Shown: positions 20,388 through 30,016 of the stretch, piece by piece
How the letters are laid out: each line of letters opens with the position of its first letter
Position numbering within the stretch: position 1 is the first letter of the stretch
DNA from: Escherichia phage JS98
Length of the DNA stretch: 64,000 bases
Direction: 5' to 3' (one strand)
Sequence record: NC_010105.1
Notes under the pieces: generated by a model
What the model saw: the letters and a program-made list of their open reading frames with translations, nothing else
Database searches by the model: none
What the model was told of the DNA's origin: nothing
Position numbers and translations under genes: made by a program

Positions 20388-20701
20388 CTCTTAGATTTAA
20401 TTTTATCCAGTTCTTCTTGTATTTGCATTGTAACACATTTTTCTACATGAAGCGCTAGCTCTTCTTTTCGGTCTTCGGAAGGCGTTCCGAAATCAACCGA
20501 CACTTTTCCATCTTTCTCAATAACAATATTCATCACATAAACGATGTGAGCAGTGCCATCGGGTAATGTAAGCATAATTTCCTGCTTAACAGAACCCATT
20601 GACTTACGGATTATATCTAACGATTTCTCATAATAACGAGGGTCACTAGGACCCTCTTCAGTATCTTTAACAAAATTATCTAAATCAGATAAATCAGTCA
20701 T
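20372..20701 (-). CDS. 40: gp40-like protein
   Basis: 109 aa between uvsX and 41, the T4 gene 40 position. Confidence 0.45.
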   Translation of the reverse strand: MTDLSDLDNFVKDTEEGPSDPRYYEKSLDIIRKSMGSVKQEIMLTLPDGTAHIVYVMNIVIEKDGKVSVDFGTPSEDRKEELALHVEKCVTMQIQEELDKIKSKRWWKW

Positions 20702-21866
20702 CTAAATCCATCTCTTCTAAATCGTTTTCGATATCAGCGGCACTTTGGGCATTGCCACCTAATTTAACAGCAACGTTCTTAGAGACACGAGAGTTAATAA
20801 GGTCGTTAACCGCATCGTCAACTTCTTTAATAGAATTAATTGCACCGAGCTTATACTTATTCTCGATTGCTTCACGGAACGGAGCATGTTTAAACAGCGG
20901 TCCCCAGAACTCAACACAATCGGTAGCTTTAGCACGCCATGCTTTTTCTTCTTGAACCATTTCACCCGTGGTTTCGTCAAGGAATGCACGATTATACCAA
21001 CCAGCTTTAGGTTTCACAACAAAGCCAATATCAGTAGCCATTTCGAGCAGACCACTAAATGGGTCGATACCACCTTCAAAGTTCACAGTAATTGGGAACG
21101 TTGATTTCTCTTTAACAGTACGAGATTTTTCGGCCTTCAGGGTGAAGTCATAACCAGTGAGCTCGGTACCATCTTTAACCTGACGTTTGGAGATAAAGAA
21201 CACGGTAGAAGCAGAGTACAGAATACCAGTACCGCCACCCATAATCTCTTTAGGATACATTCCACCAATTTCCATAGCCGTATGGTTAATTGCTACGCAA
21301 GGAATATCCTTGATAGTCAGATAAGGTGTTACGATACGGAACAGAGATTTCAGAGACTTAGCACGAGTCATATCACCTACAACTTTCTCGTTCAAAGCAT
21401 CTTCGGTTTCTTTCTTAGAAGCAGTGTTACCGATGGAGTCGATAAAGATAATAACCTTTTCACCACGAGTAATTTCTTCTAATTGGTTGGTCATGTCAAC
21501 CTTCAGTTGTTCGACTGACTGGATTGGCGTATGAACCACACGTTCCAGGTCAACACCCATTGAACGGAAATAAGATTCTGAAGCACCGAACTCAGAGTCA
21601 TAGAACAAGCAAATTGCGTCTGGATATTTCTTCATATATGCCGCAACCATAGTTAATCCAAACAACGTTTTAAAGTGTTTAGACGGCGCAGCAAAGATTG
21701 TCAAACCTGATTGTAAGCCTGCATTCAATGCACCACCCAATGCAATATTAAGCATAGGAATACGAGTAGGAACTTCGTCACGACCATTAAACAATTTAGA
21801 TTTGGTCAGGTCGGCAGTCATTTTAGAAGTAGAAGCTTTAATCAAACGGGATTTTAAATCAGACAT
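20694..21866 (-). CDS. uvsX: UvsX recombinase (RecA-like)
   Basis: 390 aa; RecA-like core; length as T4 UvsX. Confidence 0.92.
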   Translation of the reverse strand: MSDLKSRLIKASTSKMTADLTKSKLFNGRDEVPTRIPMLNIALGGALNAGLQSGLTIFAAPSKHFKTLFGLTMVAAYMKKYPDAICLFYDSEFGASESYFRSMGVDLERVVHTPIQSVEQLKVDMTNQLEEITRGEKVIIFIDSIGNTASKKETEDALNEKVVGDMTRAKSLKSLFRIVTPYLTIKDIPCVAINHTAMEIGGMYPKEIMGGGTGILYSASTVFFISKRQVKDGTELTGYDFTLKAEKSRTVKEKSTFPITVNFEGGIDPFSGLLEMATDIGFVVKPKAGWYNRAFLDETTGEMVQEEKAWRAKATDCVEFWGPLFKHAPFREAIENKYKLGAINSIKEVDDAVNDLINSRVSKNVAVKLGGNAQSAADIENDLEEMDLDD

Positions 21867-24190: not shown

Positions 24191-24570
24191 GGATGATAGG
24201 CCTTATAACTATCAAGAGTTCCTTCACGAACCATTTCTTTAAAGTGGTCAGGACGGATTGCTCGGTCATCGATGATAAAAGTATAACTCGGCTTGTGTGT
24301 AAGCAAATTGTGATATTTCAATCCAATTTTTTCAAGGTTCTTAACCAATGCAGGAACTACTTCAACCAAGATTCGACCTGGGCCACATGAAGTCATGCCA
24401 CGGGCGGTGAACAATGTAATCTCGTACCCTTCATCATAAAGCTTATTAATCATGGACACCATTTCGGTGTCCGGTTTAAAGTTCTCATAATCACGGTCAT
24501 GGTTCCAAATCGTGATTGTGTTATCGATATCAAAACATAAATGTGGCTTATTTTCTACTCGATGCGACAT
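24187..24570 (-). CDS. HAD-superfamily phosphatase
   Basis: HAD motif I CFDIDNTIT, motif II LFTAR; start placed at ATG 24570 (TAATG coupling); 24585 is alternative. Confidence 0.6.
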   Translation of the reverse strand: MSHRVENKPHLCFDIDNTITIWNHDRDYENFKPDTEMVSMINKLYDEGYEITLFTARGMTSCGPGRILVEVVPALVKNLEKIGLKYHNLLTHKPSYTFIIDDRAIRPDHFKEMVREGTLDSYKAYHP

Positions 24571-26243
24571 TAAATTTTCTTCCATTGTTTGTGGAGTTCA
24601 GTAGAACCTGTAGGTTTATATTTTACACCAGTTTCCTGGTCAAGCAAAACCCACTTATCAGGACAACGAGTAATAATTTGGGCCGTAATAGGGTCACGAA
24701 CTTCATCGACAAATTCACCCGTAATAAGCTTACGCTTACGAGGATGCCGCTTCAGCAGCACACTCAGTTGGTACAAACCGTTATAATAAGCACCCAGAGC
24801 TTTCAGAGGGTTATTCTTAAAGTACCCTGCCAGAGCCATCCAAATAACAGCAATCCAGAGCTTGTGCTTAAATGTGCACATAGGGATATCGTCTAAAGGC
24901 ATAACCTTTTCGATATCAACGAATACACGAGTTCCGTTACGAGTTAATCCACCCCATAGAGGGTCTGAGTTAAATTTGTCATAGCCATCGATAGAATAAA
25001 GCACCTTAGCTTCATCATAAATCGCAGGGCCTTTAGAACTATTACCGAAATAACCACGTGGGTCGATGATTTTAATATCACCTTCGTCCGACAGCATAAT
25101 ATTACTGTAGTGCGGGTCACCATGAATAAGTTGGTACGGTTCTTTATGTTCAGACAGAATTTCTAGTGCATGGCGAAGAAGTTTTTCAGGGTCGCCTACT
25201 TTGAAATCGTTAACATGGGTAATGCCTTGTGGAGCAAAGCCTTCAATCAACCCAGCAATAGAAGCATTACGAATAAGGACCTTGTCCAACACTTCTTTCT
25301 TAACATCAGAATACCATTGTTCATCGGACGGGTTATCAATAGTTCCACCAAATGAACGTAATGCACTAATGACCTTATAAACCATGAGGACTTTAGTTTC
25401 TTTGGACATAAACCGGTATGCATCTGCCATGGTACGACCAAAGATACGTTCCATTTTAATGAATTCGCCTGGAGAAAAGTCTACAATGCTAGGAACGAAT
25501 TCAGAATCAATAGAATTATACCAATTGATTTCTTTAGATTGAATTTCTTTACCTAATTCGTTAGTTGGTACTTTAATAGCCAGATTCTCGGTGAACTCTA
25601 ATTTATTAAATTCACGGTTAATTTCAGAATCTTCATGGGCTTTAGCCAGTTTCAATTTGTCACCGACATCAACTACAAAGTCCAGTTTACGTTCAGTCAA
25701 ATAGACCATTGAATCCAGGTTATCGGCAAGGTCTTCACCATAATTAGAACGGTCGAAACCTGTCCAATTGGCCACCTGATACAAACCAACTACGCCACCG
25801 CCCGTACCAATTTCACGTAAGTACGGTTCTTCAAATGTAAAACGACAGTCAGTTCCATAGGTATAACAGTAGTCATTACCCCATTCAACTTTATGACCGA
25901 TAGGAATGATGTCACACCAGTTAAACAGGACATTATGGCCAATGATATCTTCGGCAATACAATCGATAGCATGAGCTGAACCATTAGCAACATCAACGTT
26001 ACGAATAGTGAATTTAGGCTTATCACCAGTAATCATATTAATGGATTTAATATAGCCTTTAACGAGGTCGTTAAATTTGCTGTGAATAACCAGAATAATT
26101 TCATCTGATTGGTTACTATACAAATCATACAAATGCTTTAATACCGTATGTTGTTTGTAGTTAACCAATACCTTCGGGATTTCGTTAGTAATTGGATACA
26201 ACCGTGAGCCAAGACCTGCGCCTAAAATAACAACCTTTTTCAT
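24570..26243 (-). CDS. bifunctional sugar-phosphate nucleotidyltransferase / APH-ChoK-like kinase
   Basis: N-terminal MKKVVILGAGLGSRLYPIT (RmlA/MurU-type NTase); C-terminal HGDPHYSNIML...IIDPRGY (Brenner kinase motif); ATG 26243 with SD GAGGAA. Confidence 0.65.
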   Translation of the reverse strand: MKKVVILGAGLGSRLYPITNEIPKVLVNYKQHTVLKHLYDLYSNQSDEIILVIHSKFNDLVKGYIKSINMITGDKPKFTIRNVDVANGSAHAIDCIAEDIIGHNVLFNWCDIIPIGHKVEWGNDYCYTYGTDCRFTFEEPYLREIGTGGGVVGLYQVANWTGFDRSNYGEDLADNLDSMVYLTERKLDFVVDVGDKLKLAKAHEDSEINREFNKLEFTENLAIKVPTNELGKEIQSKEINWYNSIDSEFVPSIVDFSPGEFIKMERIFGRTMADAYRFMSKETKVLMVYKVISALRSFGGTIDNPSDEQWYSDVKKEVLDKVLIRNASIAGLIEGFAPQGITHVNDFKVGDPEKLLRHALEILSEHKEPYQLIHGDPHYSNIMLSDEGDIKIIDPRGYFGNSSKGPAIYDEAKVLYSIDGYDKFNSDPLWGGLTRNGTRVFVDIEKVMPLDDIPMCTFKHKLWIAVIWMALAGYFKNNPLKALGAYYNGLYQLSVLLKRHPRKRKLITGEFVDEVRDPITAQIITRCPDKWVLLDQETGVKYKPTGSTELHKQWKKI

Positions 26244-26303
26244 TATCTGTTCCTCAAGTGAATGTAGGTACATTATACACTATTTTTAATAAATTTCTAT
26301 TGC

Positions 26304-26804
26304 TTAAATCTTATCTTTACCGTATTCCATGCACTGTTCTACTGCAGCAGGCACTTTGGTCTTAAGCTTGTTGATTTGTTTCTTATAATCACGGGCCTTA
26401 TCGAAGCTCTCGGTTTCGAGCATTTCGTAATAACGAGCCTCATGGACAGAAATCTGTAAATTGATATGGTTTACACACATAGAATACAGTTTCTGCTTTT
26501 TGTACAAATCATCTTGGCGCTTCATTTCTGCCTGGTGTTTGGCTAGTACCGCTTCACGCTTAGACTCTTGTTCACGTTGGAATTCGATTTCCCTTTGAGC
26601 ATATTTTGCACAGTTATTACCACATTGATTATTAGCTCGGGTGTACACAAGTCCAGAACCGGCACGGAATTTCATTTCGCCGTCGAATTGTTTCTGTTCA
26701 GCTGCGATACGAGCTTTACCAACTTCATCAGCAGAAACTGCACCACCGTATTGGACTGCGCAACCTGATAGGAGCATACTCATTGCGATAATTAACTTTT
26801 TCAT
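26304..26804 (-). CDS. putative lipoprotein
   Basis: 166 aa; MKKLIIAMSMLLSGC lipobox. Confidence 0.5.
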   Translation of the reverse strand: MKKLIIAMSMLLSGCAVQYGGAVSADEVGKARIAAEQKQFDGEMKFRAGSGLVYTRANNQCGNNCAKYAQREIEFQREQESKREAVLAKHQAEMKRQDDLYKKQKLYSMCVNHINLQISVHEARYYEMLETESFDKARDYKKQINKLKTKVPAAVEQCMEYGKDKI

Positions 26805-27244: not shown

Positions 27245-29956
27245 TTAAAAGTCGAACATGTCAAATAATGTGGCTTTTTTCTCGTAGTCGATTTTAGCAG
27301 ACTCAGTAAAACCAGTCAATGGTTTGATAAAGGTCTTTTGGAACAGTACGTTGTAGTCCATCCAACGGAGGACTTGGTCACGAATCTGAATCGGAAGTTC
27401 AATACCTGACGGCCATGCCATACAAGCTTCACCGAACGGGTTGCCTTCTTTAAGTGGCAGTACATATACCTTTTCACCATCAACGATACGAGGCATAGTC
27501 AAATCACCAGCAGAAGCACGCATGTAAGCTAAGCAACCTTTGATGTGGTACGGGCATTTAGAACCAGGGAAACCGCCTTCATTATATTTCTCAATGTTGT
27601 TAGCACTGGATACTGCAGCAATGCTTACATAGTCTAATTCGTTAAATTCTTTATTAAACTGTTTGAAATATTCTTGCAAAGAGGCCTCGCCTTCTTGAAG
27701 CATACGACGGATGCATTCTTTCAGTGCTTTCTGAACCGCTTTAGGTGTACTTGATTTCTGGGTTTCGAGACCCATGATTTTCAAGTGTGGTTCGGCATAA
27801 CGAGTACCTTCCATGTCCCAAACGTTCAGTGCATAACGTTTCTTGCCTGTCCAGAATCCACCAAGACCTTTAGAACCAAGTGGAGGACCAGCGATAGCTT
27901 CTCGGTCCATGAACATCAAGTGCTGTTTATTGTTCATGTATTCACACATCTCACGGAAGCCTGCATCAATAGCTGGTTCCATACGTTCACGTGCAAATTT
28001 ATCTAAGAAGTCAACCCAGTGGTTAGTATCACGGAATTTGTCTTCGCCTACTTTATTGATGATTGCATCAGCCTTAACATAAATGGAGTCGGTATCACCA
28101 TAGAGCACGAACTTCTGGTTTTCGGTCTTACATACGCTATTCAGATATTCGTTAACCTTACGTTCAATCCATTGGAGGGCCATTTGACCAAACAATGTGA
28201 TTGCAGTTGCGTTCCTGAGGTCATAGTAACGGAACCATACGTTACCAAGTGCACCATAAAGGGAGTTGATAAGCAACTTACGGTTAATCTGAGCAGTCAT
28301 ACCTGCGACTTCAGTACGTTCGGCTTTGAACAACATTTCTTTTAAAGAAGATGCTGACAATTTTTTAATCTGGGCTTTGATTTCGTCAGAGAAGTCGAAA
28401 CGATAATCGATATCCAGTGGACTATCAACAGATGGATTAGGATTTTCTAATGCTTCTTTAATTAACTCACCGTTACGTTGAGCTGCAAGCATATAACCTT
28501 TATGTTCTTTACGCTGTAAGAACACCTTCGTGATTTCTGTAGGAATCACACCATCACGGTCTTTATAGTACATCATGCCGTTAGGAGAGCAACTGTAGGT
28601 ATCGCTAGGACGCGGAGCAGTTCCGGCAATATATTCATGTATCGGTGCGTTGGCGAATGTCCCTGCGATGGTCTCTGGGCTTATATTCACTTGACGAATG
28701 ATACTCGGGTACAGAGATGTAAGGTCGAAACTCATTACATATTTGTACGCATTAGGAATAGGTTCCTTAACGAAAGCACCTGGATAAGGTTGAACCGCAT
28801 GCGATTTGGCCTGAGGAATAACTTTACCCTGTTCTTTAAGGCTATTAAAGATAATAGCGTCCCAAGTCTTAATTGGACTGAACACCGACTGAATCTGCAT
28901 CTTGGCATAGTAACCCATGTCCAGACTAAGAAGAATGAACTGGCGTTTCATATCAATCTGCACAACACGATATACGTCGATAATGTTATAGGAAATATAT
29001 CGTTGGTGGTTCGTCTCACGTAACTTGGAGATAGGACCATCATATTTCAACTTACCTACTTTCAATTCATATTCAGAAACATAATCCAGAGAATAAGAAG
29101 GCTGGTTGGTAAAGCTGAATTTTTTATAAAGGTCGATATAATCCAGAACAGAAATACCGAACAGTGTAATAATTTCACGAACACCGTACATATTCTCGAT
29201 AACTTTAACACGAGTCTTACGATGTGGGCTTAATCGCTTAGCAGTGTTCTCACCAAACAGATTTTTCAGACGGTTATAAACGTATGGCACGTCAAATGAT
29301 TCAACGTTCCATCCAGTCAAAATCACAGGAGTTTTCTGTTGCCAGAAATTCAGATACTCAAGCATCATTTCTTCTTCAGAATTAAACGGAAGATAAACGA
29401 TTTTGTCAATGATTTCCTGTGGAACTTCGTCACCACCTTCGTCTTGGAGTTTCTCAGCGATTTTAATCGACCACTCTTTAACTCGCCCATATGGCGAATT
29501 CAGTAAATCAAATACATAGAATTTATCGTCAATCGAGTCGTAGTGAGTAATGGCATCGATAGGATGTTTAGCCTGAGCAGGTTCAGGGAATCCATCAGGA
29601 GATGTTACCTCGATGTCGAAGTTAGCAATACGAATCTTGGAAGAATCATACTTGATTTCTTTACGATAGGTATCAGACAAATAGGCTAATTTATAGTCGT
29701 CCATACCAAGGGCTTCGAGACCCATATCGTCCATGCGCTTCATCCACTGAGAAGCATCACGCATTGAATCGAATTCTTTCTTAACACAGCCCTTACCGTA
29801 GATGTCAATATATTTTACGGCTTGCTCTGGGTTAGCATGCATAAACATTGTAGGCTTGTAAGGAACTTCACGACTACGTTCGTTACCATTTTTATCGATG
29901 TAACGTTCGAGAATATTATCACCGATTTGTTCGACTGTCAAATAGAATTCTTGCAT
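27245..29956 (-). CDS. 43: DNA polymerase gp43 (family B)
   Basis: start re-placed to ATG 29956 (MQEFYLTVEQIGDNILERYID) with SD AAGGAA; collinear with T4 gp43. Confidence 0.95.
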   Translation of the reverse strand: MQEFYLTVEQIGDNILERYIDKNGNERSREVPYKPTMFMHANPEQAVKYIDIYGKGCVKKEFDSMRDASQWMKRMDDMGLEALGMDDYKLAYLSDTYRKEIKYDSSKIRIANFDIEVTSPDGFPEPAQAKHPIDAITHYDSIDDKFYVFDLLNSPYGRVKEWSIKIAEKLQDEGGDEVPQEIIDKIVYLPFNSEEEMMLEYLNFWQQKTPVILTGWNVESFDVPYVYNRLKNLFGENTAKRLSPHRKTRVKVIENMYGVREIITLFGISVLDYIDLYKKFSFTNQPSYSLDYVSEYELKVGKLKYDGPISKLRETNHQRYISYNIIDVYRVVQIDMKRQFILLSLDMGYYAKMQIQSVFSPIKTWDAIIFNSLKEQGKVIPQAKSHAVQPYPGAFVKEPIPNAYKYVMSFDLTSLYPSIIRQVNISPETIAGTFANAPIHEYIAGTAPRPSDTYSCSPNGMMYYKDRDGVIPTEITKVFLQRKEHKGYMLAAQRNGELIKEALENPNPSVDSPLDIDYRFDFSDEIKAQIKKLSASSLKEMLFKAERTEVAGMTAQINRKLLINSLYGALGNVWFRYYDLRNATAITLFGQMALQWIERKVNEYLNSVCKTENQKFVLYGDTDSIYVKADAIINKVGEDKFRDTNHWVDFLDKFARERMEPAIDAGFREMCEYMNNKQHLMFMDREAIAGPPLGSKGLGGFWTGKKRYALNVWDMEGTRYAEPHLKIMGLETQKSSTPKAVQKALKECIRRMLQEGEASLQEYFKQFNKEFNELDYVSIAAVSSANNIEKYNEGGFPGSKCPYHIKGCLAYMRASAGDLTMPRIVDGEKVYVLPLKEGNPFGEACMAWPSGIELPIQIRDQVLRWMDYNVLFQKTFIKPLTGFTESAKIDYEKKATLFDMFDF

Positions 29957-30016
29957 TTCATTTCCTTTATAGACGAGTGATTGTCTTTTGTTTGTTGATG
30001 AATAATTATACTCCAA

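Follow-up and report, generated by a model that had tools for sequence, protein, structure and literature searches.

A nucleotidyltransferase-kinase fusion protein of Escherichia phage JS98 is a probable Dhakavirus orthologue of AfhE, the sugar-activating enzyme for arabinosyl-hydroxycytosine DNA

In the 64,000-nucleotide (nt) stretch of the Escherichia phage JS98 genome analysed here (NC_010105.1; hereafter the window), the minus strand encodes a 557-residue protein that joins a nucleotidyltransferase domain to a kinase domain. Comparison with characterized phage proteins suggests that this fusion is the Dhakavirus orthologue of AfhE, the sugar-activating enzyme for DNA containing 5-O-arabinosyl-5-hydroxycytosine, an assignment to which we attach a probability of roughly 80%. 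By homology, the genes that surround it form the orthologous arabinosyl-5-hydroxycytosine cluster, with the fusion as its AfhE. An earlier sequence-only reading of the same DNA had recognized the two domains, but had connected the fusion neither with the genes around it nor with hypermodification of DNA, its likely role. Publications of 2025-2026 already describe this enzyme family and its bifunctional mechanism, together with its part in hypermodifying DNA and its occurrence in dhakaviruses; what may be new is limited to a minimal cluster without an isomerase gene and the deep, discordant branch on which this AfhE lies. The window itself shows the architecture, the residues, the orthology and the coupling of the genes; for the substrates and the order of steps we rely on the literature on homologues.

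The fusion matches AfhE from end to end and retains the residues of both active sites

The fusion aligned with AfhE of phage HY126 colinearly over its full length (557 versus 562 aa; 43-45% identity, E = 1e-143), with the same domain order and the same catalytic residues, and was 42% identical to gp52:53 of phage RB69. Among 186 positions conserved in at least 90% of 21 isomerase-associated T4-like homologues, 160 are identical in the clade of Dhaka-, Marfa- and Bragavirus. The 26 that differ in this clade are mostly conservative substitutions, the most notable being N378H and F379Y.

The function of these homologues has been described by Lee et al. (NAR 2026, PMC13326640), who report that 5-hydroxycytosine, mono- or poly-arabinosylated, takes the place of cytosine in RB69 and Acinetobacter phage DLP3, and that UDP-arabinofuranose (UDP-Araf) is the donor for the DLP3 transferases. 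RB69 gp52:53 and DLP3 gp82, both fusions of an N-terminal nucleotidyltransferase to a C-terminal kinase, are equated there with HY126 AfhE. In the passages of that paper that summarize He et al. (Nat Chem Biol 2026), the AfhE kinase phosphorylates D-arabinose-5-phosphate at C1 to give arabinose-1,5-bisphosphate (Araf1,5P), the HAD phosphatase AfhF strips the 5-phosphate from this bisphosphate, and the AfhE nucleotidyltransferase then makes UDP-arabinofuranose. The same paper cites Mahler et al. (Cell Host Microbe 2025) for the occurrence of the modification in phages of Serratia, E. coli and Acinetobacter, and its own Fig. 4 names dhakaviruses among the genera with a syntenic cluster. A homologue in Shewanella phage Thanatos, TH1_060, is essential for phage propagation (PMC12838424).

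The signatures on which the sequence-only reading had relied were recovered in the translation, namely the RmlA/MurU-type N-terminal motif (GAGLGSRLYPIT, aa 8-19) and the kinase motifs HGDPHYSN (aa 374-381) and IDPRG (aa 393-397), which have the HGDxxxxN and IDxxG forms. In the domain-wise search that it had proposed, both halves passed the curated Pfam cut-offs: NTP_transferase (PF00483) matched aa 13-110 with 33.8 bits (cut-off 21.2, E = 3.4e-8) and APH (PF01636) matched aa 356-427 with 25.6 bits (cut-off 23.2, E = 1.2e-5). The loss of key catalytic residues, which would have spoken against its domain calls, was not seen in an alignment of 56 sequences, where every expected residue was invariant, both in the nucleotidyltransferase (G10, R14, K24, D111, D192 and D195) and in the kinase (K224, E238, H374, G375, D376, N381 and D394). 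The protein thus has an N-terminal domain of the RmlA/MurU fold with G-x-G-x-R...P-K and the catalytic Asp residues, and a C-terminal domain of the APH/choline-kinase fold with the Lys, the Glu, HGDxxxxN and the downstream Mg-binding Asp.

An AlphaFold2 model built from the 56-sequence alignment was of high confidence (predicted local distance difference test, pLDDT, 93.8; predicted template modelling score, pTM, 0.90) and comprised two domains and a short C-terminal tail. The closest structural matches of the N-terminal domain were RmlA (match value 20.8), LicC (19.7), MurU (19.2) and HddC (18.2), and those of the C-terminal domain were choline/ethanolamine kinase (15.6), LicA (15.3), glucosamine kinase (15.3) and APH(4) (14.9); Foldseek agreed in both cases. 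When the PDB was searched with the fusion sequence, the matches were weak and N-terminal only, and no AfhE structure was among the deposited entries. The tail of approximately 57 aa, for which RmlA-type and APH-type enzymes offer no equivalent, carries a motif of the form P..KW.L.D.ET...Y; its residues P534, K536, W537, L539, D541, E543 and T544 (HY126 numbering) are the same in each of five phage lineages. Since the pTM of 0.90 implies a fixed arrangement of the domains, the tail may tie the two together.

Membership of other families was considered and rejected. The GlmU model TIGR01173 scored 21.7 bits against a cut-off of 366.85 and matched the N-terminal 100 aa only, the C-terminal domain having a kinase fold. 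The NCBIfam equivalogs for MurU, RmlA, HddC and GalU scored 19-34 bits against cut-offs of 250-548, within the first ~50-110 residues only.

The fusion is encoded in a compact cluster of DNA-modification genes

The window is 98.5% identical to Escherichia phage JS10 (NC_012741.1; genus Dhakavirus, Tevenvirinae). Its fusion gene lies between DNA polymerase gene 43 and imm on one side and uvsX on the other (Table 1), the slot that holds gene 42 and beta-gt in T4; the sequence-only reading was correct in stating that the fusion is not part of canonical T4. The cluster genes are all co-oriented and are joined by 1-4 nt stop/start overlaps or by start-start overlaps, and the companions of the fusion include a HAD phosphatase of the AfhF type (62% identity), a predicted 5-hydroxy-dCMP synthase (80%) and a predicted DNA arabinosyltransferase (67%), each compared with its orthologue in HY126 or RB69.

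Table 1. Features of the fusion gene and its surroundings (positions are those of the window).
Feature	Coordinates	Strand	Remarks
AfhE-like bifunctional enzyme, 557 aa plus stop	24570..26243	-	predicted D-arabinose-5-phosphate 1-kinase and UDP-D-arabinofuranose pyrophosphorylase
N-terminal sugar-1-phosphate nucleotidyltransferase domain, aa 1 to ~205	25629..26243	-	GAGLGSRLYPIT...PK, D111, D192/D195
C-terminal APH/choline-kinase-fold kinase domain, aa ~206-500	24744..25628	-	K224, E238, HGDPHYSN 374-381, IDPRG 393-397
Conserved C-terminal tail, aa ~501-557	24570..24743	-	short beta strands; motif P..KW.L.D.ET; model pLDDT 83-92
Shine-Dalgarno sequence GAGGA	26251..26255 (26255-26251)	-	7 nt upstream of ATG 26243; read directly from sequence
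Promoter-like site TAGAAA-16-TATAAT, candidate only	26272..26299	-	10/12 matches; -10 hexamer contains ATG 26273
AfhF-like HAD phosphatase, 127 aa	24187..24570	-	predicted arabinose-1,5-bisphosphate 5-phosphatase; motifs CFDIDNTIT, TARG, HKP, IIDD
P-loop thymidylate-kinase-like nucleotide kinase, 178 aa	23654..24190	-	homologue of RB69 gp45
Thymidylate-synthase homologue, 232 aa	22959..23657	-	predicted 5-hydroxy-dCMP synthase; LEYPCT and QLD motifs
Predicted DNA arabinosyltransferase 1, 297 aa	22069..22962	-	homologue of RB69 gp46:47; PHROG 3891
Gene 43 (DNA polymerase)	27245-30016		compared with HY126 polymerase
uvsX	20694-21866		compared with HY126 UvsX

The gene directly downstream of the fusion encodes the HAD phosphatase, which was 62-63% identical to HY126 AfhF (E = 3e-64), matched PHROG 1238 and had weak matches to the TIGR01689 capsule phosphatase and HAD-IIIA models. 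A GmhB-like fold of the phage phosphatase is remarked upon in PMC13326640. The stop codon of the fusion overlaps the phosphatase ATG at 24570 in the sequence TAATG, and HY126 has the same 1-nt overlap. The phosphatase has been annotated from an ATG at 24585 (132 aa); we favour the ATG at 24570 because of the homology to AfhF and the overlap with the fusion stop.

Further downstream, the P-loop kinase was 38% identical to a 182-aa HY126 protein (E = 1e-35), matched PHROG 761 and had weak P-loop Pfam matches. The next gene encodes a homologue of thymidylate synthase (ThyA) that was 80% identical to RB69 gp48 (E = 5e-146) and matched PDB entries 9iqu, 9iqc and 9ir2 (E = 2e-125); when the phage collection was searched with the 9iqu-set sequence, the HY126 gene (PP658200.1) matched it perfectly (100% identity). 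The LEYPCT and QLD motifs of the window homologue contain the equivalents of L143E and N177D (ThyA numbering), two substitutions that PMC13326640 highlights. According to the same study, 5-hydroxy-dCMP (5hodCMP) is made by a flavin-dependent thymidylate-synthase homologue, and 5hodCMP was shown experimentally to be the product of RB69 gp48. The 297-aa predicted arabinosyltransferase had no Pfam match and was 67% identical to the 299-aa HY126 protein at the same position (E = 1e-149).

Proposed pathway and the order of its steps

If the fusion is AfhE, its C-terminal APH/choline-kinase-fold domain would use ATP to phosphorylate D-arabinose-5-phosphate at C1, giving arabinose-1,5-bisphosphate. 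The AfhF-like phosphatase, directly downstream and translationally coupled via TAATG, would take off the 5-phosphate, and the N-terminal RmlA/MurU-fold domain would join the resulting arabinofuranose-1-phosphate to UTP, yielding UDP-arabinofuranose. The 297-aa glycosyltransferase, encoded beyond the phosphatase, P-loop kinase and ThyA-homologue genes, would then move arabinose onto 5-hydroxycytosine in DNA, for which the ThyA-like 5-hydroxy-dCMP synthase of the same cluster would supply the 5-hydroxycytosine. DNA modified in this way would be expected to withstand restriction enzymes and other nuclease defences. As no arabinose-5-phosphate isomerase was found in the window or in the JS10 annotation, the starting arabinose-5-phosphate probably comes from host KdsD/GutQ, that is, from the precursor pool for 3-deoxy-D-manno-octulosonic acid (Kdo) and lipopolysaccharide (LPS). 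Since the Dhakavirus cluster has a single transferase, its DNA is probably only mono-arabinosylated.

Many T4-like phages rely on a supply of UDP-arabinofuranose to place arabinose on every cytosine of their DNA, and in this way evade defences that target DNA, such as restriction enzymes and CRISPR nucleases. Arabinosylation therefore bears on phage therapy, on phage engineering and on the sequencing of arabinosylated genomes, and the fusion would offer a compact enzymatic route to UDP-arabinofuranose.

Several points weigh against the assignment to AfhE. Literature searches returned no assay or DNA-modification chemistry for any Dhakavirus, and the identity of the fusion to the characterized HY126 enzyme is only 43-45%. 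The AfhE gene tree disagrees with the genome (45% identity to HY126 for AfhE versus 85% for the polymerase and 90% for UvsX), the Dhaka-, Marfa- and Bragavirus clade is without the isomerase gene that accompanies AfhE elsewhere, and the catalytic loop that reads HGDPNFSN in the family reads HGDPHYSN here. In addition, the order of steps is known at second hand, and Table 1 of PMC13326640, as distinct from the passages cited above, gives an alternative order.

The alternative order is the likeliest of the competing explanations, but we consider it improbable. Here the HAD phosphatase would act first and free D-arabinose from arabinose-5-phosphate, the kinase would phosphorylate free arabinose at C1, and the transferase domain would make UDP-arabinose. 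This would be a true AmgK/MurU-style route from sugar to sugar-1-phosphate to nucleoside diphosphate (NDP)-sugar, the order pictured in the sequence-only reading. It corresponds to that Table 1, which assigns the dephosphorylation of Araf5p (giving Ara) to the HAD protein and the phosphorylation of Ara (giving Araf1p) to the C-terminal domain, and the closest folds of the kinase domain (LicA, AmgK-like APH kinases and glucosamine kinase) use unphosphorylated acceptors. However, the portion of the text of PMC13326640 that cites the HY126 biochemistry states that AfhE makes Araf1,5P from Araf5P and that AfhF then removes the 5-phosphate. Several invariant basic residues of the kinase domain, K321, R325, R396, K413 and K481, may also suit a phosphorylated acceptor.

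The cluster lacks an isomerase gene and its sugar-activation module is discordant with the genome

An arabinose-5-phosphate isomerase accompanies the cluster in HY126, RB69, DLP3, Serratia phage 92A1 and Acinetobacter phage Lazarus. A direct tblastn search of the window (E < 1) returned no homologue of the RB69 gp55 isomerase, the RB69 gp50 U32-like protein or the second transferase RB69p003. The remainder of JS10 was covered by its annotation tables and by a Pfam scan of eight hypothetical proteins (132-212 aa), in which no isomerase and no SIS domain were found. Within the phage collection the isomerase occurred in 276 records, compared with 366 for the fusion, and no Dhakavirus was among the 60 isomerase matches listed. 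The Marfavirus and Bragavirus relatives likewise carry the fusion with no isomerase adjacent to it. The accompanying phage isomerase is a feature of the pathway, rather than of the protein, that the window does not share. At the position of the U32-like gene, Marfavirus and Bragavirus keep an open reading frame (ORF) of similar length (~386-388 aa), the likeness being one of position and length alone.

Identities to HY126 differed sharply between the genes of the sugar-activation module and the rest of the genome (Table 2). Among the phages compared, the window was nearest to HY126, or tied with Marfavirus, for the polymerase, UvsX, the ThyA homologue and the transferase. In contrast, it was the furthest from HY126 for AfhE and the P-loop kinase, and its AfhF was less similar than that of the Serratia phage. 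These discordant identities indicate that the sugar-activation module of the isomerase-less clade has a history other than that of the surrounding genome, and suggest either module replacement or accelerated evolution in this clade.

Table 2. Amino acid identity to the HY126 counterpart.
Protein	Window	Marfavirus P545	Serratia phage 92A1	Acinetobacter phage Lazarus
DNA polymerase	85%	70%	68%	not compared
UvsX	90%	not compared	66%	not compared
ThyA homologue	80%	78%	74%	68%
Arabinosyltransferase	67%	68%	46%	48%
AfhF	63%	66%	75%	61%
AfhE	45%	45%	54%	58%
P-loop kinase	38%	41%	49%	43%

The same data could reflect a shift of substrate, which we regard as somewhat less probable again than the alternative order. 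The Dhaka-, Marfa- and Bragavirus AfhE would then activate another pentose phosphate, for instance ribose-5-phosphate via ribose-1,5-bisphosphate to UDP-ribose, and the sugar on the DNA would not be arabinose. The apparent lack of a phage arabinose-5-phosphate isomerase in this clade would fit such a shift, as would an AfhE identity to HY126 that, at 45% against 85-90% for core replication proteins, falls below that of far more distant phages, and the N378H and F379Y substitutions lie in the catalytic loop itself. A pentose isomer would also have the same mass as arabinose, so that mass spectrometry by itself could not reveal the difference. On the other hand, the transferase that must recognize the donor and the phosphatase are 67% and 62-63% identical to their HY126 counterparts, and 86% of the family-conserved positions are kept. 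With so many of these positions retained and the changes being mostly conservative, the same chemistry is favoured, and a substrate shift stays a minority hypothesis. Moreover, a phage isomerase would be dispensable, because E. coli, Klebsiella and Proteus all produce arabinose-5-phosphate for Kdo synthesis.

A broader proposal is that the Dhaka-, Marfa- and Bragavirus enzymes form a separate, deep-branching lineage of AfhE that has given up the phage isomerase, either because it taps the host Kdo/LPS pool through KdsD/GutQ or, more radically, because it uses another pentose phosphate. We put this forward as a speculation with a low chance of being correct. The minimal cluster of the dhakaviruses predicts reliance on host arabinose-5-phosphate; if the Kdo/LPS pool is indeed tapped, phage DNA modification would both depend on and compete with synthesis of the host outer membrane. 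If instead the pentose has been switched, the 5-hydroxycytosine of these phages would carry another sugar of the same mass as arabinose. For a separate lineage, the contrast between 85-90% identity in the core proteins and 45% in AfhE would reflect replacement of the module or an adaptive shift.

Annotation of the fusion and an unlikely role in surface structures

In GenBank and RefSeq records the fusion is labelled variously 'hypothetical protein', 'GlmU', 'UDP-glucose dehydrogenase', 'mannose-1-phosphate guanyltransferase' and 'capsid and scaffold protein'. The HAD phosphatase is mislabelled 'phosphoheptose isomerase', a label that PHROG 1238 also bears, and the 5hodCMP synthase is mislabelled 'dCMP hydroxymethylase'. 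By our homology-based assignment the labels 'GlmU', 'mannose-1-phosphate guanyltransferase' and 'UDP-glucose dehydrogenase' for the fusion, and 'phosphoheptose isomerase' for the phosphatase, are wrong. As nearly all records still misname the fusion gene, a correct label is of practical value.

Taken at face value, some of these labels ('GlmU', 'mannose-1-phosphate guanyltransferase' and also 'capsule biosynthesis protein') would be compatible with a LicA/LicC- or GlmU-like enzyme that activates phosphocholine, an amino sugar or a capsule precursor for the surface of the host or virion rather than for DNA, and the best structural matches do include LicC and LicA. We consider such a role very unlikely, since the GlmU, MurU, RmlA, HddC and GalU equivalog scores amount to tens of bits where 250-600 would be required, the fusion ends in a kinase domain and not in the left-handed beta-helix acetyltransferase of GlmU, and the gene lies within a DNA-modification operon between the DNA polymerase gene and uvsX, together with orthologues of experimentally verified enzymes.

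The fusion is widespread among phages

The search for the same fusion in other phages, which the sequence-only reading had suggested, recovered it at full length in 366 of 50,697 phage records (tblastn, coverage at least 80%). Escherichia phages accounted for 175 of these records, Acinetobacter phages for 57, Klebsiella phages for 25 and Vibrio phages for 17; others came from Shigella, Serratia, Enterobacter, Proteus, Yersinia and Shewanella phages, and remoter versions occur in Chryseobacterium and Synechococcus phages. In a large protein collection, 188 protein clusters contain the fusion, and PHROG 4098, labelled 'unknown function', matches it end to end. The claim that both domains reside in one polypeptide is borne out, and the description of such a fusion as unusual in a phage is not. 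The frameshift artefact named as a possible flaw, in which a sequencing or assembly error would have joined two separate genes, can be dismissed as next to impossible: the RB69 reference genome does annotate the homologue as two ORFs (ORF052c and ORF053c), but that split is itself a known sequencing error (PMC13326640), so that the artefact runs opposite to the one feared, and the fusion is a single intact ORF in all 366 records and 188 clusters and is modelled as one confident two-domain protein (pTM 0.90).

Homologues in metagenomic data provided independent support for the pathway link of the fusion. Three proteins of 922-946 aa (approximately 920-946; P0067, P0081 and P0097) have a HAD domain and a SIS-isomerase domain ahead of the nucleotidyltransferase-kinase module, on its N-terminal side, and are thus predicted to hold the entire route from ribulose-5-phosphate to NDP-arabinose in one polypeptide. 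On a jumbo-phage-like contig of 340 kb (ENA ERZ27249648; locus L008, 7334-9644), a SIS gene lies directly upstream of a 34%-identical fusion, which suggests that the module extends well beyond the Straboviridae. Genes for topoisomerase II subunits and an Fpg-like glycosylase are found nearby on the same contig. P0067 (locus L010, 8001-10775) adjoins several glycosyltransferase genes, including one for a 1164-aa protein with multiple glycosyltransferase domains, and its role may therefore lie in making glycans and not in modifying DNA.

Start site and upstream sequences

On the minus strand, the ORF of the fusion extends over 567 aa (26273..24570). Its true start is more likely at 26243, the position given in the sequence-only reading, which named no strand; this yields 557 aa that open with MKKVVILGAG and is favoured because a Shine-Dalgarno sequence precedes this ATG, the JS10 annotation agrees and all homologues start with MKK. 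The upstream in-frame ATG at 26273 falls within the TATAAT hexamer of a promoter-like site (Table 1). Region-wide, such sites were not more frequent than in shuffled sequence (19 found versus 17.8 expected), and for this reason we do not claim a promoter here; the site is a candidate internal promoter only.

Between the fusion and imm lies a 166-aa ORF (26304-26804, minus strand) with a lipoprotein signal (MKKLIIAMSMLLSGC) that matches PHROG 1754, labelled as of function unknown. HY126 and RB69 have no counterpart at that position. Its product could be a superinfection-exclusion factor or another membrane factor.

Comparison with known systems

The nearest relative is the HY126 cluster, which occupies the same slot between the polymerase gene and uvsX, has orthologous genes for the 5hodCMP synthase, arabinosyltransferase and P-loop kinase, and shows the same 1-nt overlap with the HAD phosphatase gene. 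The window differs from it in the deep branching of its fusion, which is 45% identical despite 85-90% identity in the polymerase and UvsX, in having no adjacent isomerase gene, U32-like gene or RB69p003-type second transferase gene, and in the position of the P-loop kinase gene, which is relocated between the genes for the phosphatase and the ThyA homologue.

With a separate phosphatase acting between the kinase and nucleotidyltransferase steps, the closest parallel in logic to the proposed AfhE/AfhF route is the HldE/GmhB pathway to ADP-heptose in Gram-negative bacteria. There, the bifunctional HldE phosphorylates C1 of a phosphosugar, the HAD phosphatase GmhB removes the distal phosphate, and HldE then makes the NDP-sugar. 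The folds are unrelated, however, HldE combining a ribokinase-type kinase with a cytidylyltransferase-type adenylyltransferase whereas the fusion combines APH/ChoK and RmlA folds. The two systems also use different sugars and nucleotides, and their domains follow one another in the opposite order. Membership of the HldE family was rejected on the basis of these folds and of the lack of a PfkB or CTP_transf_like Pfam match.

The sequence-only reading had compared the fusion with the two-step salvage pathways AmgK/MurU and LicA/LicC. Their pairing of kinase and nucleotidyltransferase is indeed close, but the comparison missed the bisphosphate intermediate and the separate phosphatase predicted here. 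Unlike the fusion, these systems consist of two separate proteins that act on unphosphorylated substrates in strictly two steps with no intervening phosphatase, and their products, UDP-MurNAc or CDP-choline, serve the cell envelope and are not donors for DNA modification.

Glucosylation of hydroxymethylcytosine in T4, by gp42 and the alpha- and beta-glucosyltransferases, has the same genomic position and the same purpose as the window cluster. T4 draws on host UDP-glucose and so needs no sugar-activation enzymes. To our knowledge, UDP-arabinofuranose is not normally made by bacteria, including enteric bacteria, which would explain why the phage brings its own NDP-sugar synthesis. In both systems a thymidylate-synthase homologue makes, or is predicted to make, a C5-modified dCMP and DNA glycosyltransferases add a protective sugar, the base being 5-hydroxymethylcytosine in T4 and, as predicted here, 5-hydroxycytosine in the window (PMC13326640).

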